A DNA stretch of 64,000 bases, taken from positions 64,001-128,000 of the IMG/VR virus record IMGVR_UViG_3300029904_000001; one strand, 5' to 3'. The notes under the pieces were generated by a model that ran no database searches, was not told the DNA's origin, and worked only from the letters and a program-made list of their open reading frames with translations. Made by a program: the position numbers and the translations under genes. Shown in pieces: positions 2,721 through 56,975 of the stretch. Source of the stretch: a virus (Duplodnaviria; Heunggongvirae; Uroviricota; Caudoviricetes). How positions within the stretch are numbered: the first letter of the stretch is position 1; the number at the start of each line of letters is the position of its first letter.

Positions 2721-3460
2721 AAGGAAAAAGCACAATTATTAAAAATCGAAATTATCTTTCGACTAAAGAATACATAGAACCATTTATCGATTCTATGTCT
2801 AAATTTACAGATGATTTTATTATTAGAGTTCAAACTCCAAATCAGATGACTATTACTGACAATGATCAAGATTTAACGTTTAATAGAGTTTGAATTCAAG
2901 CATTAATGCCAGAAGACCATTGTATAGATAATCATAGAGAATGTTATCATCTTATATATGGTCTTGATGTTAAGAAACCAGTTTATAAAATTGCACGTGG
3001 ATATTTAAATATGGCTTGTACTAATTTATGTGTTTTTGATCCACAGTGGTTATCTGTTTATGAATTGGAACCTGAGAAATCTTTTGTTTATGATATTAAA
3101 CATTTAATGGAAATTACATCTGATTTTGAGGTTAAGTTAAAGAAAATGAAAAACACATTTTTATCTTCCAAAATAGAAGATAAACAACAACTATTAGGAT
3201 CTATGATTGAGAAAGCTCTATTGTATGAAAATGTTAATGCAGCAGGTAAAGTTAAATTAAGTCCTAATATGATTGTTAAAGCCTATGAAAATGTATATTA
3301 TAATACCGATTCTCCATACTATGTAAAAGATTCGGAGGAATGTTCAGTATTTAATTATTATAATGCATTTACTGAACTTATAAGAGATGCTAATAAGAAA
3401 GATCTTATGACTGGATATGAGAAGACTCTTTTAGTTAGTCAATTATTTAATATTGTTTAA
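2693..3460 (+). CDS. DUF932-like protein (255 aa with TGA=Trp)
   Basis: ORFs 2693-2893 and 2906-3460 share a frame and join as FNRV-W-IQALMPED. The GYLNMACTNLCVF motif resembles DUF932-family proteins. Confidence 0.55.
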
Positions 3461-5921
3461 ATATATGATTTCACAAGAACTTTTAGATTATTTTAATGGA
3501 GATGAACTAGCTGCTTCAACTTGGTTAAATAAATATGCATATAAGGATGAAAAAACTCCAGAAGATATGCATCGCAGAATGGCTAAAGAGTTTGCTCGAA
3601 TTGAGAAAAACTATAAAGATTCTCTAACTGAAGACGAAATATTTGAATTGTTTAATCAATTTAAATATGTAATTCCTGGAGGTTCCGTAATGGCTGTATT
3701 AGGAACAGATATGCAATCTTCTCTATCTAATTGCAGTGTTATTGCATCTCCAAAAGATAGTGTATCTGGAATTATGGATACCGCCAAAAATGCAGCTAAT
3801 CTGTTTAAAAGAAGATTTGGCGTTGGCTTTGATATATCTACCCTTAGACCAGATGGTGCAGCTGTAAATAACTCAGCTAAATATTCAACTGGAGCAGCGT
3901 CTTTCATGGATTTATTTAGTAATGTTACCAATACTATTAGTCAGAAAGGCCGTAGAGGGGCATTGATGCTAACTATTTCCATTAATCATCCAGATGTATT
4001 AGAATTTATAACAAAGAAACAGGATTTAACTAAAGTTACTGGAGCTAATATATCAGTAAAGGTAACGGATGAGTTTATGAGAGCTGTTGAGAATGATGAA
4101 GATTATCTTCTGAGATGGCCAGTTGATTTTGAACCGCATCCAAACCAAATTAACGAAATTTCAGAATATAACACTTTAATTAGACTTGGAGAGAATTTTG
4201 ATCCTGAACACAGAGTTTACTTTAAAAAAATTAAAGCAAAAGAACTTTGGAAAACTCTAATGCATTGTGCATGGAATACAGCAGAACCTGGTATTATATT
4301 TGAAGATAGAATGATAGATTACGCTCCAGATGGTGCATATCCAGATTATAAGATGATATCAACTAATCCATGCTCAGAGATAGCCATGGGAGCCTTTGAT
4401 AGCTGCCGACTAATACATGTAAATCTTACTAGCTTTGTCAATAATCCGTTTAAAGACAATGCTACGTTTGATTATGACAAGTTAGCTCAAGTAGCATATA
4501 AAGCGACTAAATTAGCAGACGATTTAGTTGATTTGGAGATCAATGCTCTTGAAAGTATTAAAAATAAAGCAGAATCTGATGAATTAGAGTTAATTCGAAA
4601 GTTTATTGATACTGGTAAACAAACACGTAGACTTGGAGTTGGATTTACAGGTTTAGCAGATACACTTGCTATGTTAAATATACCTTTTTCTGATTCTTTT
4701 GATACTGTAGAGCAAATAATGTCTACTATGTTTGAAGCTGAATTAGAAGCATCCATCAATATGGCTATAGAGCGTGGTCCATTTAAAGGATATGATCAAG
4801 ATCTTGAAAATGAGATTGATAACAAATGGAATCAACTAGTAAGAGTAGAGTTTAACGAGTTATACAAGAAAATGCAAGCTCATGGACGTAGGAATATTAG
4901 TTTTTCAACTGCTGCTCCTACCGGCACCGTGTCCTTGTTGGCAAGATGTTCCTCTGGAATCGAGCCTGTATTCTTACCTTATTACACAAGACGTAGAAAG
5001 GTTCAGAATGATTCAGATAGAGTTGATTTTACTGATGTAACTGGACAAAAATTTACTAATTTTAAAGTAATCCATCCAAATCTTGTTAAATGTTTAAATA
5101 TTCTATTTCCAGATAAAGATATTAACATTCTTACAGATAAAGAACTAGACGAATTAATATCTAAAACTCCATATAATGAACAATTTGCTGGAGATATAGA
5201 TTATCATAAACGTATTAAGCTTCAAGGTATTTGTCAGGAATATATAACACATAGTATATCTAGTACTATAAATCTTCCAGAAAACACAACAGAAGAAGAT
5301 ATAGCTGACATTTATATAGAAGCTTGGAAAGCAGGAAACAAAGGCCAAACAATATATAGACAGGGTTGTAGAGATGGAGTTTTAGTTAAGAATGATGCAG
5401 CAATTAAACAGATTACATCTACACAAGCTCCAAAACGTGGTAAAAAGTTAGTTGCAGATTATTATGAAACAAGAGTAAAAGGAGAAACTTTTATTGTTCT
5501 TGTTGGTTTAATGGATAATCGTCCTTATGAGATATTTGCATTTAGGCCCAATCTTGATGCACATTTTCCTAATCATCAAGGTGTAATAGTTAAACAGAAG
5601 AAAATGCATTATAGTTTTGTATCCGATAAACTAACTATACCGGATCTTCAATTAGCTAATGAAAATATAGAAGAGAGAGCTACTACTTTATATGCTTCTA
5701 TGTTACTTAGACATGGAGTGGATATTAAATATATTATTAAGACTGCTAAGAAAGTCAATGATAATATTGTTTCATTCTCATCTGCTATGTGTCGTATATT
5801 AAGTAAATATGTAGCTAAGGAAGAAGTAAAGGGAGAGATATGTCCAGAGTGTGGTGGCAAATTAATTAAAGAAGGAGGCTGCATCAAGTGTCTAGATTGC
5901 GGCTGGTCACGTTGTGAATAG
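3453..5921 (+). CDS. nrdJ: Class II (B12-dependent) ribonucleotide reductase with C-terminal TSCPD and Zn-ribbon domains
   Basis: Motifs SLSNC, GRRGALM, NPCSE and APTGT, with terminal CPECG..CLDCG. Ends in TAG. Confidence 0.95.
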   Translation: MFKYMISQELLDYFNGDELAASTWLNKYAYKDEKTPEDMHRRMAKEFARIEKNYKDSLTEDEIFELFNQFKYVIPGGSVMAVLGTDMQSSLSNCSVIASPKDSVSGIMDTAKNAANLFKRRFGVGFDISTLRPDGAAVNNSAKYSTGAASFMDLFSNVTNTISQKGRRGALMLTISINHPDVLEFITKKQDLTKVTGANISVKVTDEFMRAVENDEDYLLRWPVDFEPHPNQINEISEYNTLIRLGENFDPEHRVYFKKIKAKELWKTLMHCAWNTAEPGIIFEDRMIDYAPDGAYPDYKMISTNPCSEIAMGAFDSCRLIHVNLTSFVNNPFKDNATFDYDKLAQVAYKATKLADDLVDLEINALESIKNKAESDELELIRKFIDTGKQTRRLGVGFTGLADTLAMLNIPFSDSFDTVEQIMSTMFEAELEASINMAIERGPFKGYDQDLENEIDNKWNQLVRVEFNELYKKMQAHGRRNISFSTAAPTGTVSLLARCSSGIEPVFLPYYTRRRKVQNDSDRVDFTDVTGQKFTNFKVIHPNLVKCLNILFPDKDINILTDKELDELISKTPYNEQFAGDIDYHKRIKLQGICQEYITHSISSTINLPENTTEEDIADIYIEAWKAGNKGQTIYRQGCRDGVLVKNDAAIKQITSTQAPKRGKKLVADYYETRVKGETFIVLVGLMDNRPYEIFAFRPNLDAHFPNHQGVIVKQKKMHYSFVSDKLTIPDLQLANENIEERATTLYASMLLRHGVDIKYIIKTAKKVNDNIVSFSSAMCRILSKYVAKEEVKGEICPECGGKLIKEGGCIKCLDCGWSRCE

Positions 5922-5934
5922 TTAAATATAATAT

Positions 5935-6372: not shown

Positions 6373-6422
6373 GTATTGGTTTATTCATCTCACTTATAAT
6401 TAACAATATTTTTGGATTTAAT

Positions 6423-6719
6423 ATGGAAGATCAAATTTTAAAACAAGTAACAGAAAATATTACTAAAAATCCATTTTATGAACAATATTATATAAGAAAA
6501 TACTTTGGAGATCAATCAGTAGATTCTTATATTCCAATTCGTATGATGGAAATACTTCCAGATAAATCGATAGCTTTAGGATTAAAAGATAGTGAACTTT
6601 TAGAGCTTTTGTTATATCGAGTTGATACGATTTATCATAATGATATGAACCAACGTGAATTAACAGAAGTTTTAATGAAAGCACTTGATTATTTTGTAGA
6701 AGCAGAAGAACGTGGCTAA
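6423..6719 (+). CDS. Hypothetical protein (98 aa)
   Basis: ORF in operon context with an 8-nt overlap into the ligase gene. Confidence 0.6.
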   Translation: MEDQILKQVTENITKNPFYEQYYIRKYFGDQSVDSYIPIRMMEILPDKSIALGLKDSELLELLLYRVDTIYHNDMNQRELTEVLMKALDYFVEAEERG

Positions 6720-7917
6720 AGAACAGGATATACTAATAAATAGAGACGCAAATGGAAAAATACGAGTAGTAGATATATCGTTAGATTGAAACGATGATTT
6801 ACATTCGTATTTAATTCAACGTAAAACTTCAGTTTATGGTGGAAAAATCACCGAACAACCTTTGATAGAAATTAAACGCGGGAAGGCTGGAAGAAGTGTG
6901 ACTGAGCAGAGCTTACTAGAATATAATTCTAACAAGAAAAAATATCTAGATAAAGGATATAAAAATATTAAAGATCTTGGATATACTTCTTTAGATGAAT
7001 TTAATCCAAATGAAGTTTTAGGGGATAATCAAACTGATTCTAATGGATTTAAAAAACACATGCTTGCTAAATCATCAAATGATGTAGCGTCAAGTGTCTT
7101 TGAACGAATTCCATTCTGATGGGGAAGTCGTAAGATTGATGGTTGTAGATGTTCTTTTTATTGAAAAGATGATAAAATACATACGGCTTCTCGTGGTGGC
7201 GGAGATTATGATGCAGCTTGTCAAGATTTTATAAACAATCCTACTTTTATTACTTTCTTTCAAAAACATCCAGATATTATATTAGATGGAGAAATGTATA
7301 AATTTGGATTATCTCTTCAACAAATTTCTGGTTGTATTAGAACAGAATTAAGTGAGGGTAAATACGATCTTGAATACTATATTTATGATACAATGACGGA
7401 AAATAAAACATTTAATGAACGTCTTGAAGAACTAGAAATGATTAAAAATGAACTTAATTTAGATTTCCAACCAGAAAGAGAATGGGAAGAAGGAGCATTA
7501 AGAATTCAAATAGTTCCTCATGAAAAAGTATCAGGATGAGCAAGTATTAAGAAATTACACGATAAATATGTAAATGAAGGTTGAGAAGGACTAGTTATTA
7601 GAGATCCAAACAAAACTTATAAATACGGTGGACGTTCTAATAATATGATTAAAATTAAAGAACGACAAGAAGAAACATTTACTATAATTGGATATGAATT
7701 AGGTTTAAGAGGTGTAGAAGATATGGTATTTATAATGAAAACTCAAGGTAATATCCAATTTAAAGCTAAACCAATGGGCAGTAGAGAAGTTAAAGAGAAT
7801 TATATGAAAAATATAAATTCTTTAATTGGACAAAAAGGCGAATGTACGTTCTTTTATTTATCAGATGATGGAACTCCGCTTCAACCTGTTTTTAAGGCTG
7901 TTAGAATAGATTTATAA
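6712..7917 (+). CDS. ATP-dependent DNA ligase (401 aa with TGA=Trp)
   Basis: GTG at 6712. Three track ORFs share one frame joined by 5 TGAs. Motifs SRKIDGCR (KxDG), LDGEMY, WEGLVIR, MIKIK, and a C-terminal OB fold (QPVFKAVR). Confidence 0.92.
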
Positions 7918-7923
7918 AAATTA

Positions 7924-7955
7924 TTTGGATAATTCACAAATATTCTATATCTTTG
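7924..7955 (+). promoter_or_regulatory. Bacteroidota-type promoter upstream of the free-standing homing endonuclease
   Basis: TTTG at 7924-7927, 20-nt spacer, TATCTTTG at 7948-7955. Confidence 0.75.
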
Positions 7956-8001
7956 TATAGTTATTAAAAATAAGTTTAACTATATAAAATATTAAAGAAA
8001 T

Positions 8002-8976
8002 ATGATTGAATATCCAAAAATTACACCGATTGAAAATCCTAAGATTGTCGAGAAAGATTATCTAATAGGTACTGTTTATTGTTTTATTAATAAAATTAAT
8101 AATAAGATTTATATTGGAGAAACAGTAAAATGTAATTACAAAACTAGGTTTATCGAACATCAAAGTAAATCTAAAACCGTTAATAATTATTTCTATAAAG
8201 CTATTAGAAAATACGGATGAGAAAATTTTGAAAGTTTTGTGTTATTTCAAACAGAAGAAGTATTATTAAATACCCCAGAAAATAAAGAAATCTTAAATGA
8301 TATAGTTAATAAAAAAGAGATAGAGTATATTGCATTATATAAATCAACTGATCATCAATATGGATATAATTTAACTATTGGTGGAGACGGTGTATCTGGA
8401 TATACTTTTTCTAAGGAAGCTAAAAAACATTTATCAGAAATACGTTCTGGAGAAAATCATTGAAATTATGGTAATTTTAACAATAAAACTTCTAAACCTA
8501 TATTGCAATTTGATTTAGATGGTAATTTTATTAAAGAATGATCTTCTGGTAATGAAATTAATCGTCAATTACATTATAATGCTAATAATGTTACGAATTG
8601 TTGTAGAGATAAATTACAAACATATCAAAATTATATTTGAATTTTTAAATCAGATTACGAAAATGGAAAACGTCCTAATACTAATACATTAACAAAACAA
8701 TTTGGACACGGAGTAAGAAGTAAAGCTGTACTACAATATGATTTTTTAGGTAATTTTATAGCAGAATATAAGTCTTGTGCAGAAGCTGGAAAAGCTTTAG
8801 GAAAAGGTACTCCAAGTAAAGCTGCGACCGGTAAAGAACCTCAATTACACGGATACATTTGAATCTATAAAGATGATTATTCCGACGAATTACTAAAAGA
8901 TAAAATAGAAAAAATTAAAGCTAAGTCTTTTTATCATAAAACTCTTGTTGAACAAAAATTGATAAAGAATGACTAA
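8002..8976 (+). CDS. Free-standing GIY-YIG homing endonuclease with NUMOD-type repeats (324 aa with TGA=Trp)
   Basis: Motifs GTVY..KIYIGET and GYNLTIGGDG, plus two repeats of the form [IL]LQ[FY]DxxGNFIxE. Open through 5 TGAs to TAA at 8974. Confidence 0.88.
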
Positions 8977-9641: not shown

Positions 9642-9741
9642 ATTTCTAACAAAAACCTAGTTTTTAGACACTTTTATATTAAAGTCATATAACTAGTCTA
9701 TTTATGTTTAAAACTCGCTAAAATCGATTAAAATTAAATAT

Positions 9742-10503
9742 ATGATACATTTATATAGAACATATAATAAAGCAAAAGATGTCTTTGTTAAACCTAAATT
9801 ACATTGGAAATTTGGTTTATGGAAAAATGATCCCTGTCTTCCAGTTTGGAGAAGAGGTCCTGTTTGGAGGATTGGAGGTTCTAGTTATAAAGCAAATTCA
9901 AAATGTTATCAAATTTATAATCAAGTTCCAATTAAAATACATAATAGAGGTGATTTAAAACCTGACGGTACAGTTTATAAATTTGATTATTATGAATCAT
10001 CTGTGCATAAACTTCCAGGAAATTTAAAGCCTTGGGATACAGTTTGGAAAAGTAAATATCGTAGATTATTTAGAAAATTTGGTTTAAAGATAGCTAAAGC
10101 ATATATACAACTTCCAATGTTATTTAGTTTTCATATATTTAATAGAGATATAATGTGGAAAACTAAATGGACTAACTATGATATTAGATATGAATTTCCA
10201 CCTCAATTTACAATTGTATTTTTTGGATTATCACTTTCTTTTTGGTTAAATCCAGAAATTAAAGATAAAGAAACAGAAAGTTTTGATCATTATTGGGAAT
10301 CTCTTCTTAAATACGTTTATGGTAAATATAAAGGAGATTTGTTACAAACTGTTATTAGTTGTGGTAAATGGAGAAATCTAAATAAAAATACATCTTATTT
10401 CCAAGTTTCTAAAAATTATATTAAACCAAAATATTGGAATCAATATGACGAAGCTATTGAATTATATAAAGAATTAGAAGATAAAAATGATAACAACGAG
10501 TAA
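9742..10503 (+). CDS. Trp-rich hypothetical protein (253 aa)
   Basis: Clean ORF with 12 Trp, all encoded by TGG. Confidence 0.75.
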   Translation: MIHLYRTYNKAKDVFVKPKLHWKFGLWKNDPCLPVWRRGPVWRIGGSSYKANSKCYQIYNQVPIKIHNRGDLKPDGTVYKFDYYESSVHKLPGNLKPWDTVWKSKYRRLFRKFGLKIAKAYIQLPMLFSFHIFNRDIMWKTKWTNYDIRYEFPPQFTIVFFGLSLSFWLNPEIKDKETESFDHYWESLLKYVYGKYKGDLLQTVISCGKWRNLNKNTSYFQVSKNYIKPKYWNQYDEAIELYKELEDKNDNNE

Positions 10504-10660
10504 AATACAAGAAGCAGCACTAAAAGCCGAAGACATGATGAATGATAGATATGGTAATAGTTGGCTTATTGAATTAGAAAATGGTAATCTTGAAATTAAA
10601 GAAGGTTACGAAATGGAATACGATTATTATTTTGATAAATTTATGTATGGAATTAAGTAA
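10487..10660 (+). CDS. Small hypothetical protein (57 aa)
   Basis: ATG at 10487 to TAA at 10658 fills the gap and overlaps both neighbours. Not in the ORF track. Confidence 0.5.
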   Translation: MITTSKIQEAALKAEDMMNDRYGNSWLIELENGNLEIKEGYEMEYDYYFDKFMYGIK

Positions 10661-12005
10661 GTCAAAGAATGCTAATATTAATTATTTAGCAAAAATAGTT
10701 AAAATAGAATCTTTTATACCTCATCCGGATCCAGAGACTACAAGATTGAAAATAGCTCAAGTTGATGGTTATAACATTATAGTTAGTATTGATTCAGAAC
10801 CAAGTGTGTATGTTTATTTTCCAACATCTTGTGAAATAAATCCACAGCTTCTTTCATATGCTAATTTATATAGAGATAATATAAAAAACAATAATCCTGA
10901 TATAACTGGGTTTTTTGAAAATAATGGAAGAGTTCATGCTATTAGACTTAGAGGTGTAGTATCTGAGGGATTTTTAATGGATTTACAGTTATTTATTAAT
11001 TTTTTAATAGATAATGTGAATCAAGCTCCAAGTAGAATTCCAATGAACTTTGAATTTGATTCTGTGAAAGATGGAGATAAAGAATTTTGGATTTGTAGAA
11101 AATATGTAATTCCTGTTAATCCTATTCAATCTTCCGCTCAATCAAGATATCAAAAAAGAGTCAAAAAGTATAATCGTGTTATCGATACTCAGTTTAGATT
11201 TCATTATGAAACTACTTTAATACGTAAAGTACCTAATGCTATTCTTCCAGATGATCTAATATCTGTGTCAAATAAGCTTCATGGAACCTCACTTTGTTCT
11301 GCTTATGTTCTTTGTAAGAGACCTAAGAAATGGTATGAGTTTTACAAGAAGGAAGATCCAATAGAATACGATTATTTATACTCTTCTAGATCTGTAATTA
11401 AAAATTCTAATTATAATCCAAAAAGAACAGCTGGATATTTTGGTTGTGATGTATGGTATTATGCAAATGAGTATCTGAAGCCGTATTTACAGAAGGGAAT
11501 GACCATATATTCCGAGATTGTAGGATTTCTTCCAAATGGTAAATATATTCAAAAGAATTACGATTATGGATGTGTTCCACCTAAGAATGAACAAGACTAT
11601 AAACCAGAAATTAACTTTAAAGTTAGACCGTATCGTATAACTTTAACAAATGTAGATGGTTATGTACATGAATTTTCAGCTAAAGAAGTACAACAATGGT
11701 GTCAATATCATAGCCTTACTCCTGTAACTGAATTTTATTATGGATACGCAAAGGATCTATATAAAGATTTAGATGTATCTAATCATTGATATGAAAACTT
11801 TTTGGAGAGACTTGCAAACGATAAGAATTTCTATATGGAAATGAACTCTCCAGACTGTAACAATAAAGTGCCTCATGAAGGTATTGTAATTAAGAAAGAG
11901 AATATGAGACCTGCTGCCTTCAAGCTTAAATGTTGGAAGTTTCTTAATAAAACTGAGCAAGAAGCATTGGATGCAGGAGAATCAAATATTGAAGATAATA
12001 ATTAA
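10647..12005 (+). CDS. RNA ligase (Rnl2/DRB0094-like with N-terminal OB fold), 452 aa with TGA=Trp
   Basis: N-terminal OB fold (PHPD..RLKIAQV, RLRGVVSEG), motif I NKLHGTS, YSEIVG, EGIVIK, FKLK. Joined through TGA at 11787. Confidence 0.88.
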
Positions 12006-12018
12006 AATAAGAATTAAT

Positions 12019-12453: not shown

Positions 12454-13078
12454 ATATCTAGAACATTTAATAGGAGATCCTTTGGTATATTACGTATATC
12501 AAAGAGGATCTTCTATTTATGGTTTAAATACTGAAGAAAGTGATATAGATTATTTAGTTGTAATTGATTCTAAATATAAACTTCCTAAAGAGTTTGTTGA
12601 ATATGAGTTTAATTCTGGATGTTTAAATGCAAGAGAAAACATAAAATATGAAAATTGCGATTTTATGTTTATAAATATTCAAGATTGGTTTAATTTAGTT
12701 ATTAATAATGATATTCAAGCTTGGGAATGTGCTTGTTTAAATAAAAAATTTATTAAAAAAGAATATGTGAAATTAATTATTAAAACAGATCCAATTTTGT
12801 TAATAAAAAATATATTTAAACAAAGCTCTATTCTTGATAACTCTTTAGATTATAAACATCTTTGGTATTTTGGAAAAGACATTTTATTTACTCAACAAAT
12901 ATTAGATTTTCATAAAATTGTTGATTTTCAAGAAGCAAACGGATTATATTATGACATTCAAGCTCAATCTAATGCTAAAATAGCTCAAGATATAGTTAAA
13001 GAAGTATTTCAACAATTTTATGAGAAAAACAAAGGTCAGTACGAACAATATATTAAATCTATAAAACAAAATGAGTAA
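12446..13078 (+). CDS. Pol-beta superfamily nucleotidyltransferase (RlaP-like)
   Basis: RGSSIYG-LNTEESDIDY matches the GS...DxD signature. Confidence 0.75.
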   Translation: MNKYLEHLIGDPLVYYVYQRGSSIYGLNTEESDIDYLVVIDSKYKLPKEFVEYEFNSGCLNARENIKYENCDFMFINIQDWFNLVINNDIQAWECACLNKKFIKKEYVKLIIKTDPILLIKNIFKQSSILDNSLDYKHLWYFGKDILFTQQILDFHKIVDFQEANGLYYDIQAQSNAKIAQDIVKEVFQQFYEKNKGQYEQYIKSIKQNE

Positions 13079-13943
13079 AATATTAGTACTTCAGGGACCT
13101 CCGGCAGCGTCTAAGTCTACGTGGGCTAGAGAATTTGTTAAAGATAAAACAGATTGGGTTATAGTTAATAGAGATTCTTTACGTGAAGGAAGAGGAGAAT
13201 ATTGGATTCCGAGTCAAGAAGATTATATTTCTGATTTGGAAGAATTTTCTGTAAAGGCTGCCATTAATAGAGGATTAAATGTTATTATAGATGCAACTAA
13301 TCTTAATCCAAAAACTATTGATAAATGGAATAAATTAGCTAAAAGTACGAAATCGACAATTGAATTTAAAGAGTTTTATATTCCATTTAAAGAAGCTCTT
13401 GAACGCGATAAAAAGAGAGAAAGATCAGTTGGAGAAAAAGTTCTTAAACGATTTTATAAACAATATTATCCAGATGAATACGCAAGAGAATGTACAGATA
13501 ATAGATATATTCTAGAACAAGATAAATCCCTTCCTAAATGTATTATTGTCGATTGTGATGGAACTGTATGTCTTCATCAAGGTAGAGATGCTTTTGAGTA
13601 TGATAAAGTATTAACAGATAAACCTAATACACCATTAATTGATCTTATTACTGTTTTAAGCGCGTCTATCGATATAATCTTTTTCTCTGGTAGAGAAGGA
13701 ACAAAACAGTGTCGAGAAGATACCTGCAAATGGTTAAATCAACATACTAATTTTCCTTATCAATTATATATGCGAGCCGAAAAGGATTATAGACCGGATG
13801 AAATAATTAAAGAGGAGTTATTTAACACTCATATAAAAGATAAGTACTATTGTGTTGCCATTTTTGATGATCGGGATCGCGTGATTAAAAAATGAAGATC
13901 GATGGGACTGTTAGCTAATCAAGTATACGAAGGTAATTTTTAG
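13071..13943 (+). CDS. pseT: Polynucleotide 5'-kinase/3'-phosphatase (T4 Pnkp-like), 290 aa with TGA=Trp
   Basis: P-loop GPPAASKS, VIIDATNL, HAD motif DCDGT, SGR, FDDR. Reading through TGA at 13893 gives KKWRSMGLLANQVYEGNF-TAG, matching the T4 Pnkp C-terminus (MWRRIGVECWQVASGDF). Confidence 0.92.
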
Positions 13944-13944
13944 T

Positions 13945-14501: not shown

Positions 14502-14774
14502 ATGAGTGTAGAAGATCAGATAAAAGAAATATTATCAAATAGAGGATTGGAACTTAATTATAAAGAAACTTATCCTTCTTCTAAAGATGATATTTATGAA
14601 ATGAATATTTGGTTTGAAGATAGAAATCTTACTAAGTATCCATTTCATAATATTTTTATTAGACCTGTAAAAGAAGAGAATCCTAACTATAAACAAAAGG
14701 CTTTTGAGATACTTTTGAATACAATTATAGAAGGATATTTTGATAATTTAAATATAAATAATGAAGTTAGTTAA
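14502..14774 (+). CDS. Hypothetical protein (90 aa)
   Basis: ORF in operon context. Confidence 0.6.
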   Translation: MSVEDQIKEILSNRGLELNYKETYPSSKDDIYEMNIWFEDRNLTKYPFHNIFIRPVKEENPNYKQKAFEILLNTIIEGYFDNLNINNEVS

Positions 14775-15636
14775 TCCGTCAGCACAATTTATAGAACAAG
14801 AAGATTCGATTATAGGAGCATTTAAAAATGTTGAATTGGCTGGAAGAATAGCATATAAATCAGAAGACAAGATTACAGAAGATTCATGATTGAAATTTGC
14901 TAAGATGTTAATGGATAAGAAACATTATTCTCCATTTGAATTTGGAACTATTTATTTAACATTAGATGTTAATTCTCCATTAGAGGATCAGGAGTATGTA
15001 AGTAAAAAGAATATGCATACTTTTTATAAAAAGAATCCATATTCTAAAATTGTAACTAAAGCTTCAAATTATCATACAACTTATTATATAACCACCAATC
15101 TTAGAGTAATTATTGAAAACGATAGATGGGATGATTTAAAATATCAAACTGAACGTACTGAACATACACCTAGAATATGTGTGAAAATAGTTACTTCAAG
15201 GGATATATCACATGAATTTGTACGTCATCGTGCGTTTAGTTGGCTTCAAGAGAGCAGTAGATACTGTAATTATAGTTCAAGTAAATTTGACAATAATGTT
15301 ACGTTTGTAATACCTGCTTGAATGACTAATATTTTGAAGGAGGGAATGTACAGTGAATCAATTCCAGATAAAATTGATATTACAGATCCCATTGTTCAGA
15401 CATTTTTGAATAGTCTTTTAGACGATGAAAGTTATTACTTCGATCTTCTAAATTATGGTTGGAAACCTCAACAAGCAAGACAAGTTCTTCCAAATGCTCT
15501 TAAAACCGAGTTAATGATGTGCGGTTATCCAAAAGATTGGGATAATTTCTTTAAATTAAGATTAGCTCCAAATGCACATCCTTCAGCTCAGCAATGTGCA
15601 GAATTAATTACACAAGCAATAAATTATGGAAATTAG
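14761..15636 (+). CDS. thyX: FAD-dependent thymidylate synthase (291 aa with TGA=Trp)
   Basis: ATG at 14761. Motifs AGRIAYKS, HYSPFEF, RHRAFSWLQESSRY, ARQVLPN, FFKLR..AHP. Joined through TGAs at 14887 and 15319. Confidence 0.95.
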
Positions 15637-15829
15637 TAAAGTAAAAACGGTTTTTGAGTCATTAAATAAGTTTGATTATTTAAGTAAAGACAGTGATTAT
15701 ATTACAGTAACAGAATGGGCTAATGGAGAAGGTTGGGATATTTGTATAAATAACAATACCTTTCAACTTACTCTTGGACAACTAGAAGCTATAAATTATC
15801 TTACAAAAACTTTAGAATATGACAAATAG
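15626..15829 (+). CDS. Hypothetical protein (67 aa)
   Basis: ORF with 11-nt overlaps. Confidence 0.6.
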   Translation: MEISKVKTVFESLNKFDYLSKDSDYITVTEWANGEGWDICINNNTFQLTLGQLEAINYLTKTLEYDK

Positions 15830-16145
15830 TTTTAACGTTTTGATATGGGATGTTAATCATGATGAATTAACGTATTATGATGTCATCCCATATCTTTTAA
15901 GACAATATAATGAGACTAAGAAAATGGATTCCTATAAAGAAACTCCGAAGACTGGAGATGAGTTTAAAGAGTTTATTAAGAAAGAAGCTATGTATCAATG
16001 GTGGTCTCGTTGTGAATATGAAATAATAATATCAGATTGGCCTTGTCAAAAACATCAAGTAAAAATCGATGTTTACGATCAGGTATTAATGAATCTTGAT
16101 GTTATAACTGATATTATAATAAATATAGTTGAAAATGAGCACTAA
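15819..16145 (+). CDS. Hypothetical protein (108 aa)
   Basis: ORF with a YQWWSRCEYEIII motif of the kind seen in phage hypothetical proteins. Confidence 0.65.
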   Translation: MTNSFNVLIWDVNHDELTYYDVIPYLLRQYNETKKMDSYKETPKTGDEFKEFIKKEAMYQWWSRCEYEIIISDWPCQKHQVKIDVYDQVLMNLDVITDIIINIVENEH

Positions 16146-16674
16146 CAGTAATATTATAATTCAGGTTTCTGATAGTTTTATTAATACAGTACACCAGTTT
16201 GCTCCTACTGCACTTCCATTTCCAGAATCTCAATGGGATAGTCATGGTGAATATAGAGATTCTGATAAATCACAACCTGTAAAAATAATTAAACCTTTTT
16301 TAGGTATTTATTGTCATTGGGATGGTTATCCAGATGTAGTTGGTAAAGCATTAATAACACAGTTTGATACTTTTGAGAAAGCTTTTAATCTAATTATAGG
16401 TGGAGATTGTTCTGTTATTACAGACGATCAAGTATTACGATATGCTACACGTCCAGCTGAAGAATGGAAAAACATTCAACCTAAGCAATTAGATAAAGTA
16501 CAGAAGTTTACTGAGTGGGCACATTATGTATATGTATTTAAAAATGATCATTGGTATCTTTATACAGGTGATCTCTTGTTAATATTACCAAAAGATGTTT
16601 CGTCTCTAAATGATTATATACGAGGATACGAAGATGGTGTAGAAGATGGTATTACTTTCGCTCGATTTAAATAA
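16135..16674 (+). CDS. Phage hypothetical protein with a YCHWDGYP motif
   Basis: ATG at 16135; contains GIYCHWDGYPDVVG. Confidence 0.65.
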   Translation: MSTNSNIIIQVSDSFINTVHQFAPTALPFPESQWDSHGEYRDSDKSQPVKIIKPFLGIYCHWDGYPDVVGKALITQFDTFEKAFNLIIGGDCSVITDDQVLRYATRPAEEWKNIQPKQLDKVQKFTEWAHYVYVFKNDHWYLYTGDLLLILPKDVSSLNDYIRGYEDGVEDGITFARFK

Positions 16675-16679
16675 TAATT

Positions 16680-16973
16680 ATGCCAAATAAACCACTTTCC
16701 GATGATTTTAAAGATAGAATAATAAAATTCTATCAAGCTCTTGATTGTAAATATTTCGTATTTAAAATAGACGATTTAATTAATTCAATAAATGAAGAAG
16801 ATTATCTTGTGCTTATAAATATGATGGAAAAATATAATAATTATAGAGTCGAAAATGATAAACAAGAAAATAAATATTTTGTTATAAATAGAGATGAACT
16901 TCCTAGATTTAGGAAATTTGAGGAGTTTCATACTTGGTTAACATCTAAAAACAATCAGAGTAAATCTGAATAA
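16680..16973 (+). CDS. Hypothetical protein (97 aa)
   Basis: ORF in operon context. Confidence 0.6.
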   Translation: MPNKPLSDDFKDRIIKFYQALDCKYFVFKIDDLINSINEEDYLVLINMMEKYNNYRVENDKQENKYFVINRDELPRFRKFEEFHTWLTSKNNQSKSE

Positions 16974-16984: not shown

Positions 16985-19292
16985 ATGGATCTCGAAAAAG
17001 CATTAAAAAAATTAATCTATAAGGATCCGTTCTATGGTCTATTTTTACTAAATCTAGATAAACAATATAGTACAGAAATTGAAACAGCAGCTGTTGCTAG
17101 AAATGGCATCAACTGTCGTTTACTTATTAATAAAGAATATTGGGATAGTTTATCGGACGAGAATCAGCTATTTTTACTTAAACATGAGGTTAATGTGTAG
17201 CCTCTTTATATAGTAATATATAAATAAAACGGCTTAAATTGCGGGAAACTCCTTAGAGCTTTTATTACAAACTTATTATAGTAATATAAATAAGGGCTGA
17301 AGTAATTACTCGGAGATTGTAAAAAGATAAAAGATTGGACAATCCGCAGCCAAGTTTCTATAAAATATTTTGAAATTTAAAATTAATTTTATATATTTGT
17401 GTTAATAATTGGACATAAGTTTAACTTTAAAATTTAATAATTATGTATAAAAAAGAATTAACTCAAAAACAAAAAGAATTAATTTTAGATTGTTATTGTA
17501 ATCAAAAATTATCAATTCCAAAAACATCAGAAAAATTAAATATTACAACGTATTTAATTTCTAAATTTTTAAAAGAAAACAAATTAACTAGAATAGCTGG
17601 TACAGAAAGAAAATATTTTCATAATGAATCGTATTTTGAAAATATTACAACTGAAAGACAAGCGTATTGATTAGGTGTATTATATGCAGATGGTTGTGTT
17701 AGCAAAGATAATTCTAATACAGGTATTTTACGATTTAGTTCAATTGATAAAGAATGAGTCGAACAATTTAAAATAGACATAAATGCTTCAAATCCTGTTT
17801 TAGAAGAAATACATAAAAAATTTAATAAATCTATTTGAAAAATTCGATTAAGTAGTACAAAAACTTTTAATGATTTATGTAATTATGGGTGTGTTCCTAA
17901 TAAATCTTTGATTATTAAGTTTCCTAAATTGCCCGATGAATTGATTCCTCATTTTATAAGAGGTTATTTTGATGGAGATGGATGTATATCGGAAAAGAAA
18001 TATATTTCTGGAAAAAATTATACAACTCTTAAAACTAGTTTTTGTACAGGATCTAAAGAATTTATTGAAGAATTATTAAAATTTTTACCAGTTAAGCACA
18101 AACTAATAGAAAAAAGAAAAAATAGAAATTTATACGAATGTCGTTTTTCTGTGAATGATAGTGCTAGTTTATATCATTTTATGTATAAAAATAGTACAGT
18201 TTGATTACAACGTAAAAGAAATAAATTTGAAAAATATTTTATAGAAAAAGGTTCAACGACTATAATAGCCCATCCAAATTAAAAATTTGGATGAAGGTAT
18301 AGTCTAGTTTTATGTAGAAATATATAAATATTCGTGGACATATAATGTTTAAGCACTTTTTTATTATGAGTGACTGTTCTAATCATACAGTAGCTAATAT
18401 TGCGGAGGACGTCGAGATAAATAATTATGTGGATCCCTCCAGACAATTTCTTGGCAAGTATTGGTATCCAGAATCAATAAATCAGCCTGAAAAATTAGGT
18501 TCTCGTGAATATTATCGTAGGATAATGAATAATGAAACTCCAATTCAAGTTGTTAGTGTTGGAATTAAAGGATCAAATGGAGAACAAATGGTTGATGATC
18601 ATTCGAAATGGGGTTCAGATAAAGAAGATGGATTTGAGGATTTATCAGATGCAGAAAGAGAATTAATCGCACAACAAATAGACCATATTGCGAAACAAAC
18701 AGCGGAACAAACAATTAAACAACATGGCACAATTCCAGGATGTTTCAAAGATTATATAGAAGGTTTGTTTAAACAAAAACCTGCTATTTTTAATTGGAAG
18801 AAATATTTTAGAAGACTAATTGGAACTGCTATATCAATAGATTTAAAGAAAACACGTAAAAAAGAATCTATTAGATTTCCCGATAGTTCTGCTGTTAAAT
18901 ATAAAAGAAAATCAAAAATATTAGTAGCAATCGATACTTCTGGATCAGTAAATGATAAAGAATTATGCGATTTCTTTAGTGAAATAAATCACATTTGTAA
19001 ATCTAATGTCGATGTAGATGTTTGTGAATGCGATACACAAATAGATCGTATTTATAAATATAATGGTAAATGAGATGGGTCAATATCAGGTCGTGGCGGT
19101 ACCGCATTTGAGCCTCCCATAAAATATTTTAACGAGCATCGAGATTATACAACTATAGTTTATTTTACAGATGGATATGCTCCACTTCCATCGATTAGAG
19201 TTAGAAACAACCAAATAATCTGGGTTATTACTTCAAATGGAGATCATAAAGAATGGCCAGGTTATGCAATATACATACCAAATGAACATTAA
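16985..19292 (+). CDS. DUF2201-type metallopeptidase + vWA domain protein (387 aa after splicing)
   Basis: Exons 16985-17190 and 18335-19292. Splicing restores LKHEV-GH (HExxH). The vWA MIDAS motifs DTSGS, RGGT and FTDG appear after reading through TGA at 19071. Confidence 0.88.
17369..17399 (+). promoter_or_regulatory. Intron-internal Bacteroidota-type promoter for the LAGLIDADG gene
   Basis: TTTG at 17369-17372, 19-nt spacer, TATATTTG at 17392-17399. Confidence 0.7.
17443..18282 (+). CDS. Intron-encoded double-motif LAGLIDADG homing endonuclease (279 aa with TGA=Trp)
   Basis: Motifs AYWLGVLYADGCV and PHFIRGYFDGDGCI. Contains 4 TGAs. The 3' end (KGSTTI) overlaps intron element R. Confidence 0.9.
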
Positions 19293-22266
19293 TACAATAA
19301 CGTTAGAAGAATTTAAAGATATTTGTAACTACTTGCTCGATAATAATAGGAGACTTGTAGATGAAGGTAAAAATCCGACTGCCGTTGGTGTAATAGGAGA
19401 AGCTGGATTAGGTAAAACCTCGGTTATACAGCAAATAGCTGAAGAAAGAGGTATGACGTTTGTTAAATTAAATCTTAGTGAGCTTGAAGAGGTCTCAGAT
19501 CTTACTGGTTTCCCCATTAAGGAGTATAAGCTTAGAGTAAAGAATTCTGAAGGCAAATTTGTTGATACCTGGGTTGCACATGACCTTTTAGACTTATATC
19601 TTCGTTCAGCTTGTGAGGATTTTGAGTTAACAGATCAAGTTAGAATGAGTTACGCTACTCCAGCTTGGCTTCCAAGAGAAGAAAATGAGAATGGTACTAT
19701 CCTGCTACTTGATGATTATTCGCGTAAAATTAAATAAAAATCTCAACAAAAATCATCAAGAAATATTTGTTTATTTTAAAATTTTGTGTATCTTTGCATA
19801 ATTAACCAAATAAAAATATTAATTATGTGAAAATTAACAAAAGAAAATTTAAAATTACCAGAAGTTAAAGGTAAATCTGGAGTTTATCGATTCTGGTGTA
19901 ATGATCATTCCTACATTGGAAGTGCAAAAGAATTTAAACATAGATTATCTACCCATATAAATACTATGAAGCGTGGTACACATCATAATCACACCGTTCA
20001 AAATGTATTTAATAAATATGGATTAGATTTATTTACGTTTGAAATTTTAGAATATTGTCCAATTGAAGATTTATTGGTTAGAGAAACATACTATATTAAA
20101 ACTCTCAAACCAGACATGAATCATATTTTAGATGCAGTAAGAATAGAACGAGATCAAGAGACTATCGAAAGAACAAGAATTTCACAATTAAAATATTATG
20201 AAACACATCGTCCAACTAATATTAAAAAGGTTTACCAGTACGATTTAGATGGAAATTATTTAAATGAATATGATTCAATTGTTGATGCTGCCAAATCTAT
20301 TGGAACTAATAAACACGGATCGATTTCACAATGTTGTAATGGAAAAACCAAAACGGCAAATGGATATCGATGGAGTTTTAAGAAATACTCACAATTGCCA
20401 AAATTAGTTAAAAATTGTAAATTTAAAACAATTTATCAATTGGATAGTAATAAAAAATTAGTTGGAATATGATACAAATTAACTGATATTGAACGTGATT
20501 TGCATATTATGCGAAATACAATAAAACTTTATTTAAATAAAGATGAATTATATAAAACTTGTTATTGGACAACTATTCCTCCAGAAGATTTAACTATCGA
20601 ACCAGGAATAAATCCGGTTTTAACTTTACCAGAATTCATCCCAAATTTAAAAGCTTCAGTAAAAGTTTATCAATATGATTTAGATGGAAACTATATCGCT
20701 GAATTTCCCTCTGCTGCAGAAGCAGATAGACAAATGGGAGCTACATCAATAGGAGCAGTTTCTAGTGCTGCTAGAGAGGATACAAATAATAAAACAGCGT
20801 TTGGATATCAATGAAGTTATAAAAAAGCAGATAAAATACCACCTTACGTTAATAATAGTTCAAAAGCAAAAATTGTATCTATTTATATATTTGATATTTT
20901 TAACAATAAACATCTTCAATTCGAAAGTATCGCAGAAGCTGTAAGAAATTTAACAAATAATGATAATTTTGACTCAGATTGTGCTACCATGTCTAGTTGT
21001 GCTAAATTAGGTGCGATATTCAAGTGCAAATATTTAGTTAGTTATTCGTCTGATTTCAAACTTCCAAAACGTAAAACAATTATTTATAATTCACTTCAAG
21101 ATACATTTTATTCTAATGCTAAAGTTGCAGCGGAACAAAACCATCTATCAGAATATAAAATTAAACAAAGTTGCATAGATCAAAATAATGTTGAGTGGGT
21201 CTATGTAGTCGATTGTGCGCGAAAAAAACTCAGTGAATCTGGAAAACTCCTTGAAGAAGGACAATCCTAATCCAAGCTTTGTAGAAATACAATGAAGGAT
21301 CAACGACTAGATAAAGTAATCTGACCGAGTGGTGTCGAAGATGAAATATCCACGAGTGCTGAGCAACAATTTATACTTACCGAAGTTAAACGATTGTTGA
21401 AGAGATAGTCTGAACTATATAGTAATATATAGAAGTATCAGATAAAGAACTGGTACGATAACAATACTAAAATGGCAAATTCTTTGTTTATGCAAGCTGT
21501 AATGGAACTCATCTATACAGGCAAATATATTAGTTGGAAATTACCTAAATATACTTCCGTGATGCTGAGTTCAAATCCTGATGACGGCTCATATCAAGTA
21601 AGTTCTCTTGATGCTGCACAAATGTCAAGAATGGTTAACTTTCCAATTAAATTTGATATTAAGGTTTGGGCCGCGTGGGGAGAAAAAGCACAATTAGATA
21701 ATAGGGCTCTAAATTTTGCTCTAATGTATTCTAATGAAATATTTGAACAAGAAAACAATCGCACAATTAATCCTCGTTCTTATACTACTTTCTGTAATGC
21801 TATTTCTGGATTAAAGGATTGGTCTAATACTAAGGATTTAGCAATGATATTAAATATAGCTAAAGGATGTTTTGATGATAAAGATAACATTGTTGGAAAT
21901 CTATTTACTATGTTTATAGCTAATAAATTGGATAAACTTATATCTCCAGAAAGATTGTTAACAGGTGATTGGAAAGAAGTAAGTGAAGAAATAAAACAAT
22001 GTGTGTATGATGAACATGGAAATTATCGTCCAGATATAGCAAGTGTTTTATCTACAAGACTTCTTAATTATACGAGTTATTATTTTGAGCAAAAAGGTTC
22101 TAAATCAGATTCAGTTCAAAAACGATTACTAGAAATTATCGATTCTCCAGAAATGCTATTTTCTGAAGATTTAATATATAATGTAATTAAACAACTTGCT
22201 ACTAATTATGCTAGTAGAATGAATAAAGTTATTATACATCCAAAAATTCGTAAAAAATTATTATAA
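19282..22266 (+). CDS. MoxR-like AAA+ ATPase (411 aa after splicing)
   Basis: Exons 19282-19725 and 21475-22266. Walker A GEAGLGKTS. Splicing joins Walker B LLLDDYSR to ANSLFMQAVMELI. Also SSNPDD and the Arg-finger SRM. Confidence 0.9.
19767..19797 (+). promoter_or_regulatory. Intron-internal Bacteroidota-type promoter for the GIY-YIG gene
   Basis: TTTG at 19767-19770, 19-nt spacer, TATCTTTG at 19790-19797. Confidence 0.7.
19825..21270 (+). CDS. Intron-encoded GIY-YIG homing endonuclease with NUMOD1-type repeats (481 aa with TGA=Trp)
   Basis: Begins ATG-TGA-AAA at 19825. Motifs SGVYRF..SYIGSA, and repeats VYQYDLDGNY. Three track ORFs share this frame. Confidence 0.87.
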
Positions 22267-37600: not shown

Positions 37601-38105
37601 CAATTAGAGCACTAAATTCTTGTCCACTAATAGTATAATCTTTTGGAATTGAGTCTCCTTGAATTTCTAAATATATTTGATTTATAAGATCATATTTGTA
37701 CTTAGCGATATTCTTATTTAGATTATTTAGATTTGGAACATCACTAGGTCCATTAGCAGATACAAATCTTGTTTCTTTTAAATTATAAATAGATGATTCG
37801 ACAATTTTTTTAGCAAAAGTTCTACGTAAATTATTTAAATCTTGTGATTTACCTATATATAAACTAGTAAGAGAATCTTTATCAGATGATTCTATAGTTC
37901 TATTTAATGATTTTTCTTCTGGAGCTTTTGGTTGAGATTCTTTTTTGCCAGCTCCTAAATTGCTTTGAAATTCAGATATAACTTGATCCGCATTTTCAAA
38001 TTTTTGTTCTACAAAAGATTTAAAATCTTCTGGAGACAAAGATTGACTCAATGTCTCCAAAAGATATTTAAATTTATTTGAATATGTACATTTTTTAGCA
38101 CTCAT
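28611..38105 (-). CDS. crAss-type virion RNA polymerase (single chain, two-barrel) with a C-terminal zincin domain (~3027 aa after splicing)
   Basis: Exons 38105-32451, 32266-31433 and 31205-28611. Splicing restores GARIPTQ...WLEGSDYD-IDK and LSAATD-NAKELIL. DGSGISSP..EN.SL and KSAIKVG occur upstream. The C-terminal region contains FHEIGH. Confidence 0.92.
31206..31432 (-). ncRNA. ORF-less group I intron (227 nt) in the RNAP gene
   Basis: P1 is exon CTACAGAT paired with GTCTGTAG. P AACTCAGGGAAAC, Q AATCCTGATC, R GCAACGACTAT, S AAGATATAGTCT. Terminal G at 31206. Removal restores the reading frame. Confidence 0.92.
32267..32450 (-). ncRNA. Minimal ORF-less group I intron (184 nt) in the RNAP catalytic DxDxD motif
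   Basis: P1 is exon TACGAT paired with GTCGTA. P AATTGCGGGAAA, Q AATCCGCAGC, R GTTCAACGATTA, S AGAGATAATCT. P3 ATTCTC/GAGAAT. Terminal G at 32267. Confidence 0.92.
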
Positions 38106-47466: not shown

Positions 47467-47469
47467 AAA

Positions 47470-54492: not shown

Positions 54493-54512
54493 ATATCGAT
54501 ATATATTATAAT

Positions 54513-54550
54513 AAAAATGAGAGACTAGCACAATATCTAATCTCTCATTT
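54513..54550 (-). terminator. Intrinsic terminator between the small Gln-rich gene and the giant cargo genes
   Basis: On the minus strand: AAATGAGAGATTAG-loop-CTAGTCTCTCATTT followed by T residues. Confidence 0.75.
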
Positions 54551-54576
54551 ATCTATTTATTTTATGAGGGACTATC

Positions 54577-54945: not shown

Positions 54946-55009
54946 AAATAAATAATTAATTTAACGTTAAACTATAATAAAATCTAATTTGTTATTTCTC
55001 GACTCGATT

Positions 55010-55041
55010 CAAAAATAGAAAAAATATTTGAAAAATCCAAA
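55010..55041 (-). promoter_or_regulatory. Bacteroidota-type promoter on the minus strand
   Basis: On the minus strand: TTTG (55041-55038), 20-nt spacer, TATTTTTG (55017-55010). Confidence 0.65.
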
Positions 55042-55064
55042 TGAACTTGTTATTTAATTTTAAT

Positions 55065-55095
55065 TTTGGAATTTTAATATTTTTAATTATCTTTG
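55065..55095 (+). promoter_or_regulatory. Bacteroidota-type promoter driving a short transcript
   Basis: TTTG at 55065-55068, 19-nt spacer, TATCTTTG at 55088-55095. Confidence 0.7.
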
Positions 55096-55192
55096 TATTG
55101 CAATCTAATATTGAATTCGAGAGAGTAGGCGTTCTGGATATAAATCACTCAGAAACCACTTTAATTATTTTATGTTTATTTTAAAGATTGTT

Positions 55193-55220
55193 AGGCGGGT
55201 AGTTAGTACTCGCCTTTTTT
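55193..55220 (+). terminator. Intrinsic terminator
   Basis: AGGCGGGT-AGTTAGT-ACTCGCCT followed by TTTTT. Confidence 0.75.
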
Positions 55221-55318
55221 ATTTTTATAATGTTATGTAAAATTTTTATAATGGATATGGTTGTCCAGTATAACAAAAGAGTTACGACAGGGTTGTAAAT
55301 TATAAAATTTAAAATAAT

Positions 55319-55350
55319 TTTGGATTTTAAAAATTTTTGTTTTATATTTG
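55319..55350 (+). promoter_or_regulatory. Bacteroidota-type promoter for the SF2 helicase-like gene
   Basis: TTTG at 55319-55322, 20-nt spacer, TATATTTG at 55343-55350. Confidence 0.72.
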
Positions 55351-55451
55351 TATTGATAGATACGACATATTGTACCTATTGGGTGACTCCAATAAAGAAG
55401 TTTCCACTGATAGATACACTATAAAATTTTTAACATTAAAAATCGAAAGTT

Positions 55452-56975
55452 ATGAAACAAATTATTAAAGCAAATCAAAATTCAAAGTTTTTATCTGATG
55501 TCATTGATAATTTACCATCCAAATGTTTATTTAATAAAGGTATAACTGGATGTGGAGGTACTACGCTAGAGATAGAATCGAAACGTGACTCTATAATTCT
55601 TGTACCTAATATAAATCTTGTTATAAATAAAACCTTTGTATATCCAAATTTAATTGGAGTATGAGGTGAAACTACTCAAACTGAGTTCAAAAGTAAACTG
55701 GATAAACATCTATTTAATAAGATAATTGCCACATATGACGCACTTCCAAAATTAATTGAATGACTTGGAGATACAATATATGATTATTTTCTATTAGTCG
55801 ACGAATATCATATTCTATTTAATAGCTATGCCTTTAGATATAAAGCTATCTCCTTTGTATTACAAAATTATACTAAATTTAATGATTATTGTTTTATGAC
55901 TGCAACTCCTTTAACTGATTATAATATATTAGAAGAAATCAAAGACCTTCCTCAAATTGAAGTACAATGAGAAGCAGCAATTCCAGTTAATGTGACAGTT
56001 AAAAATACTTATTTTACTAGCAAAGAACTAACTTCCATTATAAATAATAGTTTAAATGAAGATTATAATTGACATATCTTTATTAATTCAATAAACACAA
56101 TTAGGAGTATAATTAAAAATATTAATACTACTGATTATCGTACCATCTGTTCAAAAGAAGCCGCAAGTAAAGATAAATCAGAAGGAAAATTAAAAGTTAA
56201 ATCTATTAATTCTCCAGTTTGTAAAATAAATTTCTATACAGCAACTGCATTTGAAGGAGTTGATATTTACGATCCTAAAGGCAAAACAATAGTTATTTCG
56301 GATACTAATATAGCTCAATCTTTAGTAGATATTTCTACTTTATTTATACAAATTTGTGGAAGATTACGAGATTCTATATATAAAAATGAAGCATTATTTA
56401 TATGTAATACTAATAATCATCGTTATCTTAAATATAAAACAGAAGATGATTTTATAAAAGCAAGTAATGAAATAGAAAGAAAAGCCAAAATATTTGAACA
56501 AGATTATCTTAAATCTGAAATAGAATCTCAAGAAATAACTCAATCTTCCTGAGATTCTAATCCAGTATTTTATCAAAGCGTTTATCTTGGAAAAAGTAAT
56601 CAGAATGTATTTTATGATCCAAATCTTAAGAAAACGGATAAACAAAATTTTGATGTAATTACCAAAGTATTTTCTAGTACAGTAAATGTATTAAATAATT
56701 TAAATAACCAAGCTAATGTTATAGCTAAAATAGAAATTCCAAATTATGATTTATATAAAGAATTTTTTGATTTACTTCCAGACATTCAAGTAAAATCAAT
56801 TGATTTATTTGAACATTTAGCCAAATTTTTTAAAAAACACAAACTTATTTCTACTAAAGCAAAATCTGATTTTCTTAGTATTTGTTCTAATAAAAAAAGA
56901 ATAGAAGAAAATGGAGAAAGATTTTGAATTTACGATTTTACTAAACTAAAGTCTATAATAGGAAAAGGAGAGTAA
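55452..56975 (+). CDS. SF2 (DExH) helicase-like protein, 507 aa with TGA=Trp, antisense to the cargo cluster
   Basis: Translated codon by codon: GITGCGGTT, LVPNI, LLVDEYH, FMTATP, IFINS, YTATAFEGVDI, QICGRLR. Six TGAs; TAA at 56973. Confidence 0.85.

Follow-up and report, generated by a model that had tools for sequence, protein, structure and literature searches.

Selective avoidance of TGA tryptophan codons in a recoded crAss-like phage and its candidate intron-split suppressor tRNA

The DNA described here, referred to as the window, is a stretch of 64,000 nucleotides (positions 64001-128000) of the 176,910-bp virus record IMGVR_UViG_3300029904_000001, which possesses direct terminal repeats and is the complete genome of a crAss-like phage. 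This phage reads TGA as tryptophan (Trp), and its choice between TGA and TGG differs strongly among classes of genes. The pattern is probably one of TGA avoidance in some genes and drift in the others, rather than TGA enrichment in late genes. An opal suppressor tRNA gene, tRNA-Trp(UCA), was identified at genome positions 34520-34838 (L002:17520-17838), about 29 kb before the window, and is interrupted within its anticodon by a putative group I intron.

Distribution of TGA among gene classes

Application of genetic code 4 raised the coverage by open reading frames (ORFs) of at least 80 amino acids from 0.69 to 0.96. In alignments with the related genome G001, Trp was found opposite in-frame TGA at 73 of 169 aligned codons, followed by tyrosine (20) and phenylalanine (13). 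Gene counts for the window are written below as TGA/TGG, with translation under code 4. The plus strand up to 24 kb encodes metabolism, RNA repair and chaperone genes, and the minus strand presumed cargo and tail genes; the plus-strand block holds 31/85, compared with 121/53 for the late block (p=6e-13 by Fisher's test). Heterogeneity between genes was evident by permutation overall (p=5e-5) and inside the plus-strand block (p=1e-4), with p=0.24 inside the late block.

Seven related TGA-recoded records were compared with this phage by counting Trp codons in aligned orthologues. These relatives came from searches with the PolA and capsid-operon genes; a search with nrdJ yielded no close ones. 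Synonymous sites are near saturation between the distant genomes, and the TGA share of the phage's own genes correlated with that of their distant relatives (rho 0.67, p=4e-7, 45 genes). A preliminary description of the window had claimed that TGA use depends strongly on gene class, and this dependence is indeed beyond chance and conserved. The main classes are annotation-only lists pooled over the eight genomes, which are related, so that their counts are not phylogenetically independent. TGA forms 0.58 of Trp codons in replication enzymes (131/225), 0.62 in the terL and portal genes and 0.82 in endonucleases (permissive classes), as against 0.05 in nucleotide metabolism, 0.07 in RNA repair, 0.03 in chaperones and 0.05 in the major capsid protein (MCP; 2/41). 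For broader classes, the lists of which were drawn partly with the counts known, the share is 0.63 in cargo, 0.67 in tail, 0.08 in the capsid operon (9/115) and 0.04 in early small genes.

The replication core is TGA-rich in six of six genomes, including G009. In that genome (L165-L170) TGA is found mainly in replication genes (24/9) and is scarce in cargo (5/50) and tail genes (8/26), the reverse of the published late-gene pattern, with few TGA codons in virion genes. It has been described that replication and nucleotide-metabolism genes of crAss001 share one transcription phase, while capsid and tail genes share another (PMC10136315); the TGA classes therefore cut across known phases. The PolA gene (L003:13750-15762) is 6/6 in this phage; the G001 version, 72% identical, is 0/11, and that of G009 is 9/2. 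The gene is absent from G007, G010 and G011, which fits the known swapping of polymerases in crAss-like phages.

Avoidance rather than enrichment

The permissive classes all lie at or under their own rate of A-ending lysine, glutamate and glutamine (Lys/Glu/Gln) codons (0.75-0.85), as do the large genes of window 24015-54531, whose TGA share is under a rate of 0.87. At conserved Trp sites of permissive genes the choice of TGA or TGG is near-random between genomes, as it is at Lys/Glu/Gln sites, with odds ratios of 0.8-3.7, six of seven of which are not significant. Comparison of the avoiding genes with G007 showed differences at 9 of 119 Trp sites, as against 297 of 1143 Lys/Glu/Gln sites (p=1.5e-6). 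Trp codons of these genes thus stay TGG as synonymous positions elsewhere in them change, which argues for selection and not for lag. On the late strand, the TGA share drops as an expression proxy, C-ending two-fold codons, rises (rho -0.50, p=0.005).

Single TGA codons late in the genes for RNA ligase (codon 403 of 474), Pnkp (275 of 290) and the vWA-like protein (243 of 315 of the second exon) had been pointed out previously, and their positions are correct. The RNA ligase site is TGG in five relatives and the Pnkp site in three, and wherever relatives align with the lone TGAs of the vWA-like gene and of the capsid gene they have TGG; these TGAs are therefore recent variants and not gates. 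A C-terminal placement of rare TGAs was considered and rejected (median position 0.54 versus 0.48, p=0.44). The 3' context of TGA and TGG showed no clear difference (p=0.10), and no convincing case of TGA as a genuine stop was seen in early genes.

The suppressor tRNA and its intron

ARAGORN and Rfam scans of the genome returned no UCA tRNA, and the suppressor gene came to light by reading the tRNA cluster. Four candidates from a pattern search for a suppressor tRNA were chance matches. The tRNA is split after U34 by a 227-nt insert (genome 34552/34780), and its joined halves fold to a 92-nt cloverleaf (-35 kcal/mol) with the loop CU-UCA-AA and an extra arm. The orthologue in the close relative G007 (L140:1442-1533, minus strand) is an uninterrupted 92-nt gene with exactly the predicted junction.

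The insert possesses a P1 helix, in which a U.G pair marks the 5' splice site, and it closes with a terminal G; its P3, P4 and P7 elements form a core in the proper order, such a core being met in 2 of 1000 shuffles. Across six homologues 91% of cells are paired, as against 27-47% in slid controls, and two-sided change is seen in 11 of 22 pairs of these six introns. The Rfam model RF00028 gave no score over cut-off on the insert. These features point to a group I intron, and splicing of the tRNA is predicted. Relative G011 encodes a plain, single-arm tRNA(UCA) with a homologous 213-nt intron at the same site (L181:1975-2260, minus strand), and about 19 metagenome loci, several of them near-duplicates, carry introns of 186-707 nt there. 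As G007, G001, G009 and G010 are without it, a role as timer is less likely for the intron than that of a mobile passenger. Six genomes hold the region, and in each of them the UCA tRNA is on the strand of RNase H, 5-12 kb upstream of that gene, a position that fits a code switch before replication.

Directly after the split suppressor lies an HNH endonuclease gene with three TGA codons (L002:17942-18529), a possible homing partner; no homologue of it was found in the seven relatives. The surrounding region (L002:14500-18900) contains scrambled tRNA-like elements, their 3' half ahead of the 5' half, inside long stems, with two weak YrlA matches. In one tRNA of the region the anticodon loop encloses a tRNA-Pro (L002:17044-17210). 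ROOL RNA was observed near intron-split suppressor tRNAs on two metagenome contigs (L404:935-1536 and L397:12309-12883). The motif ACTTAYAAT is enriched in the tRNA cluster, and no tie between it and gene class was found.

A second anticodon-like arm

The extra arm of this phage's tRNA and that of the G007 tRNA both terminate in N-U-CCA-AA, on stems that differ but are paired. Long UCA tRNAs were searched for with the sequence of the first arm fixed and the second loop left free, the result being a sample. At least 45 were listed, 13 of selenocysteine (Sec) type without a CCA loop and 32 with a 7-bp acceptor stem and G73. Among the matches listed, all 32 of the non-Sec type carry the TCCA loop (shuffle rate 3.6%), and their second-arm stem is 92% paired, versus 36-43% when slid.

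The spliced tRNA would carry the identity set of bacterial tRNA-Trp, namely G73, A1-U72, G2-C71, G3-C70, G4-C69, G5-C68 and A9. In bacterial tRNA-Trp, C34 is itself an identity element alongside this set (PMC9976931). C34, C35 and A36 are not in the decoding arm of the suppressor, where UCA stands; a CCA is found in the second arm and may serve recognition by the tryptophanyl-tRNA synthetase (TrpRS) of the host.

Tentatively, and with slightly less than even confidence, we propose that the UCA arm decodes while the CCA arm lets an unmodified host TrpRS charge the tRNA, and that tRNA finders miss such genes on account of the intron. Part of the answer both to why suppressors appear to be missing and to who charges them would lie here, and in this clade the code switch would gate DNA replication and not lysis. 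Two points weigh against a need for the CCA arm: G001, G009, G010 and G011 possess plain UCA tRNAs, and Borges et al. cite charging of TGA suppressors in E. coli (10.1101/2021.08.26.457843).

Explanation of the codon pattern and its alternatives

The explanation that we consider likely as a whole combines avoidance with drift. UGA would be decoded as Trp by a suppressor tRNA(UCA) of the phage itself, the gene for which is on the early strand, upstream of those for replication. A family search of five genomes, this phage included, gave no match for RF-1 or TrpRS; as the phage supplies neither release factor nor TrpRS, the decoding of UGA probably comes with a delay and competes with host RF2. 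Purifying selection would strip TGA from early small genes, translated before the suppressor accumulates, and from genes needed in bulk or intolerant of truncation, such as the major capsid operon. GroEL, MoxR/vWA, RNA-repair and nucleotide enzymes probably belong to the same group. Trp codons of replication enzymes, terminase, portal, tail, cargo and endonucleases would drift to an AT-driven equilibrium. Dependence on UGA decoding would be a by-product that starts with DNA replication and not with the late genes. The gene classes and the way they are conserved, the absence of excess TGA and the tRNA gene are observed; the explanation would further involve gene timing, expression levels and inefficient decoding, as well as splicing and charging of the tRNA. 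A host of standard code is indicated only indirectly, by promoter motifs of Bacteroidota type and by the avoidance of TGA in early genes.

Several points weigh against this explanation. Nucleotide, RNA-repair and chaperone genes avoid TGA though they are downstream of TGA-rich replication genes, for which early promoters of their own or abundance may be responsible. Late genes of G009 have far fewer TGA codons than the equilibrium predicts, and neither avoidance nor drift accounts for this. On the early strand the expression proxy is no guide to whether a gene avoids or permits TGA (rho 0.13, p=0.39), a null result that leaves room for timing there. The pooled counts share the non-independence of related genomes, and the timing assumed for the genes is that of crAss001 and phi14:2 (PMC10136315).

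The preliminary description had proposed that TGG-only genes work before UGA decoding is on, with nucleases and virion genes locked until later, having noted that recoded phages were reported to concentrate the recoded codon in late genes. The latter is already published, and the proposal as a whole equals the published timing model, as described by Borges et al., Yutin et al. and Pfennig et al. Such a designed lock, in which a preference for TGA in virion and nuclease genes keeps these off until late, would agree with a late block that is 70% TGA as against 27% in the plus-strand block, with one or more TGA codons present in 36 of 45 late-strand versus 27 of 88 early-strand genes, and with endonucleases at 82% TGA. 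Three endonuclease genes of the window also have Bacteroidota-type -33/-7 promoter motifs upstream (7924-8001, 17323-17442 and 19740-19800). We nevertheless regard it as unlikely, since the virion genes include an MCP with 2/41 and a capsid operon with 9/115, replication enzymes reach 131/225, and G009 shows the pattern reversed. There is no TGA excess over the A-ending rate in counts that did not single out the lysis genes, late genes with no TGA number 2 where 2.3 are expected (binomial), TGA shows no positional bias within genes (p=0.86, 0.44), its sites wander between genomes, and the lone C-terminal TGAs are unconserved. The early half of the proposal is supported in that early small genes are nearly free of TGA (8/102), as would be expected of genes read ahead of suppression; the lock on virion genes is not supported, as the MCP and its operon avoid TGA also. 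A replication checkpoint, in which the replication core would actively retain TGA so that replication awaits the switch of the host to code 4, is similarly improbable. The TGA-rich core in six genomes, even in G009 with its TGA-poor late genes, the suppressor gene always just upstream, and four sites that are TGA in every aligned genome (RNase H codon 88, SF2 helicase codon 229 and two in unannotated genes) speak for it. The TGA share of replication genes (0.58-0.67), however, is not over the A-ending rate (0.76), about 2 all-TGA sites among 23 are expected by chance at that share on a hand estimate, where 4 were seen, and PolA and DNA ligase switch class between genomes. Given that the signal in this clade is avoidance and not late-gene enrichment, UGA decoding looks costly and any switch precedes replication.

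TGG-only genes might instead have been taken recently from standard-code donors and not yet have drifted. In favour of such a lag are nrdJ, for which none of the seven relatives offers an orthologue and whose best matches are standard-code crAss-like phages at 55-59%, and the PolA of G001 with its 0/11. RNA ligase, Pnkp, MoxR, vWA, GroEL and MCP genes, however, are common to genomes at 35-65% identity, in which they keep their synteny and use TGG only, and their other synonymous sites have turned over. Lag is therefore refuted for shared genes and very unlikely in general; for nrdJ and further singletons it may yet apply. The preliminary description had also named local AT content alone as a possible cause, and across all window genes the TGA share does track GC content at third codon positions (rho -0.51). 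This correlation vanishes inside the plus-strand block (rho -0.11, p=0.65), and TGA is missing from genes in which 87-94% of Lys/Glu/Gln codons end in A. In the Trp-rich gene at 9742-10503 (plus strand, no assigned function) 94% of these codons end in A, yet it is 0/12 (p=2e-15 against its own A-ending rate), and its orthologue in G007 (76% identity) is likewise 0/12. The second MoxR exon (0/5, p=6e-6) and nrdJ (0/7, p=2e-4) also fall short of their own rates, and AT content as sole cause is refuted. The avoidance-plus-drift explanation is the one we retain.

Other features of the window

The counts on which the preliminary description was based proved correct. Its TGG-only genes are nrdJ, a class II ribonucleotide reductase gene (3453-5921, plus strand, 0/7, avoiding class), the gene at 9742, four small genes (15626-16973, plus strand, 0/12) and a MoxR-like ATPase gene (19237-22266, plus strand, 0/7). 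The last consists of exons 19237-19737 (0/2) and 21472-22266 (0/5) and is interrupted by a group I intron matching RF00028 (21193-21432). TGA-only genes are the free-standing GIY-YIG/NUMOD endonuclease (8002-8976, plus strand, 5/0, permissive class), the LAGLIDADG intron endonuclease (17443-18282, plus strand, 4/0) and the lone plus-strand gene of the late block (55452-56975, 6/0). That nucleases are TGA-only applies to these two endonucleases, and not to the GIY-YIG intron endonuclease (19786-21270, plus strand, 3/4), which uses TGG too, or to an exonuclease VIII-like replication/recombination gene (346-1380, plus strand, 3/1). Homologues of the exonuclease gene are TGG-only in four distant relatives and 4/1 in G007. 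The ATP-dependent DNA ligase (6712-7917, plus strand) is 5/2, as reported, and varies among relatives, being 1/6 in G007 at 83% identity.

Also on the plus strand are RNA ligase (10581-12005, 1/6), Pnkp (13071-13943, 1/5) and thyX (14761-15636, 2/4), the latter TGG-only in four distant relatives. The vWA-like (DUF2201) gene (16985-19292, plus strand, 1/6) has exons 16985-17200 and 18345-19292, which flank the LAGLIDADG intron ORF.

Large minus-strand genes at 24015-54531, labelled by position and size as presumed virion cargo or RNA polymerase subunits, are rich in TGA (87/47), as had been stated; the gene for a 3123-residue cargo protein is 24/19. No family match to a virion RNA polymerase and no catalytic motif were found in the ORFs scanned, and the large late genes sit where it is expected. 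The ORFs 32421-38105, 31415-32269 and 28611-31097 match parts of one 3069-residue protein of G001 and are probably one gene broken by introns or other breaks (window 28611-38105). For the gene at 55452-56975, previously labelled a helicase, neither Pfam nor PHROG gave a match, the sole trace being a DEYH motif; it has no full-length orthologue in the relatives and is possibly a mobile insert. Presumed tail genes (57001-64000, minus strand) are 2/0, 4/0, 2/0 and 24/7, the last continuing beyond the window end.

Affiliation of the phage

Capsid fragments at genome positions 144199, 142907 and 141416 match an intact ORF of G010 at 49-62%, homologues of which carry PF23898 (Crass_capsid), identifying it as a Crass-type MCP. 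TerL and portal belong to PHROG 6681 and 6547, and the best named TerL matches are cr-series phages (27-28%). By similarity of sequence, TerL, portal and capsid protein place the phage among the crAss-like phages (Crassvirales). Judged on its 177-kb size and intron load, the phage would be compatible with the Zeta group.

Comparison with known systems

Gene-class-biased recoding in crAss-like phages is already known, and reading it as avoidance corrects the published account for this clade. Borges et al. described gut phages of code 4 in which TGA encodes Trp in a subset of genes, with enrichment in structural genes and in an intron endonuclease, a suppressor tRNA and a proposal for timing (10.1101/2021.08.26.457843). 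Their crAss-like and Agate examples keep replication genes in standard code, and enrichment is stressed; in this phage, by contrast, TGA occurs in replication enzymes, is avoided by the capsid and shows no enrichment over neutral expectation. The passages of Yutin et al. 2021 on Zeta-group crAss-like phages describe intron-rich genomes of 145-192 kb with TGA reassigned to Trp mostly in late genes, and give as single examples an MCP that is free of in-frame stops and a PolB in which TGA codons are numerous, suppressor tRNAs often being undetected (PMC7886860). Gene-class statistics and an intron-split or two-arm suppressor do not feature in those passages. With Mgcod, Pfennig et al. described an early block readable in either code and a late recoded block, with the suppressor upstream of the recoded genes (10.1101/2022.06.29.495998); here the pattern runs gene by gene on each strand and the boundary lies inside the early strand.

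A literature search, with most subscription journals outside it, returned no two-anticodon tRNA and no intron-split phage suppressor. Group I introns occur in the anticodon loops of bacterial tRNAs, such as cyanobacterial tRNA-Leu(UAA). Like that intron, the predicted one is short, follows U34 and has a U.G pair in P1, a terminal G and a P3/P4/P7 core; unlike it, it lies in a phage opal suppressor, and RF00028 scores nothing. The tRNA itself resembles bacterial tRNA-Sec and class II tRNAs in its UCA anticodon, length of about 92 nt, long extra arm and G73. It differs from tRNA-Sec, which has an 8-bp acceptor stem, in a 7-bp acceptor stem with Trp identity pairs, a 5-bp T stem and a 7-nt CCA loop at the end of the extra arm.

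In the study of Borges et al. just 35% of genomes yielded a TGA suppressor, and the question of charging by the host TrpRS was left open (10.1101/2021.08.26.457843), and Pfennig et al. detected a TCA suppressor in 3 of 17 genomes of code 4 or 11 (10.1101/2022.06.29.495998). A hidden suppressor of the kind proposed here bears on both points, the apparent lack of suppressors and the charging of a UCA tRNA without a phage synthetase. If true, a natural tRNA with separate arms for decoding and charging would be of interest to tRNA engineers.

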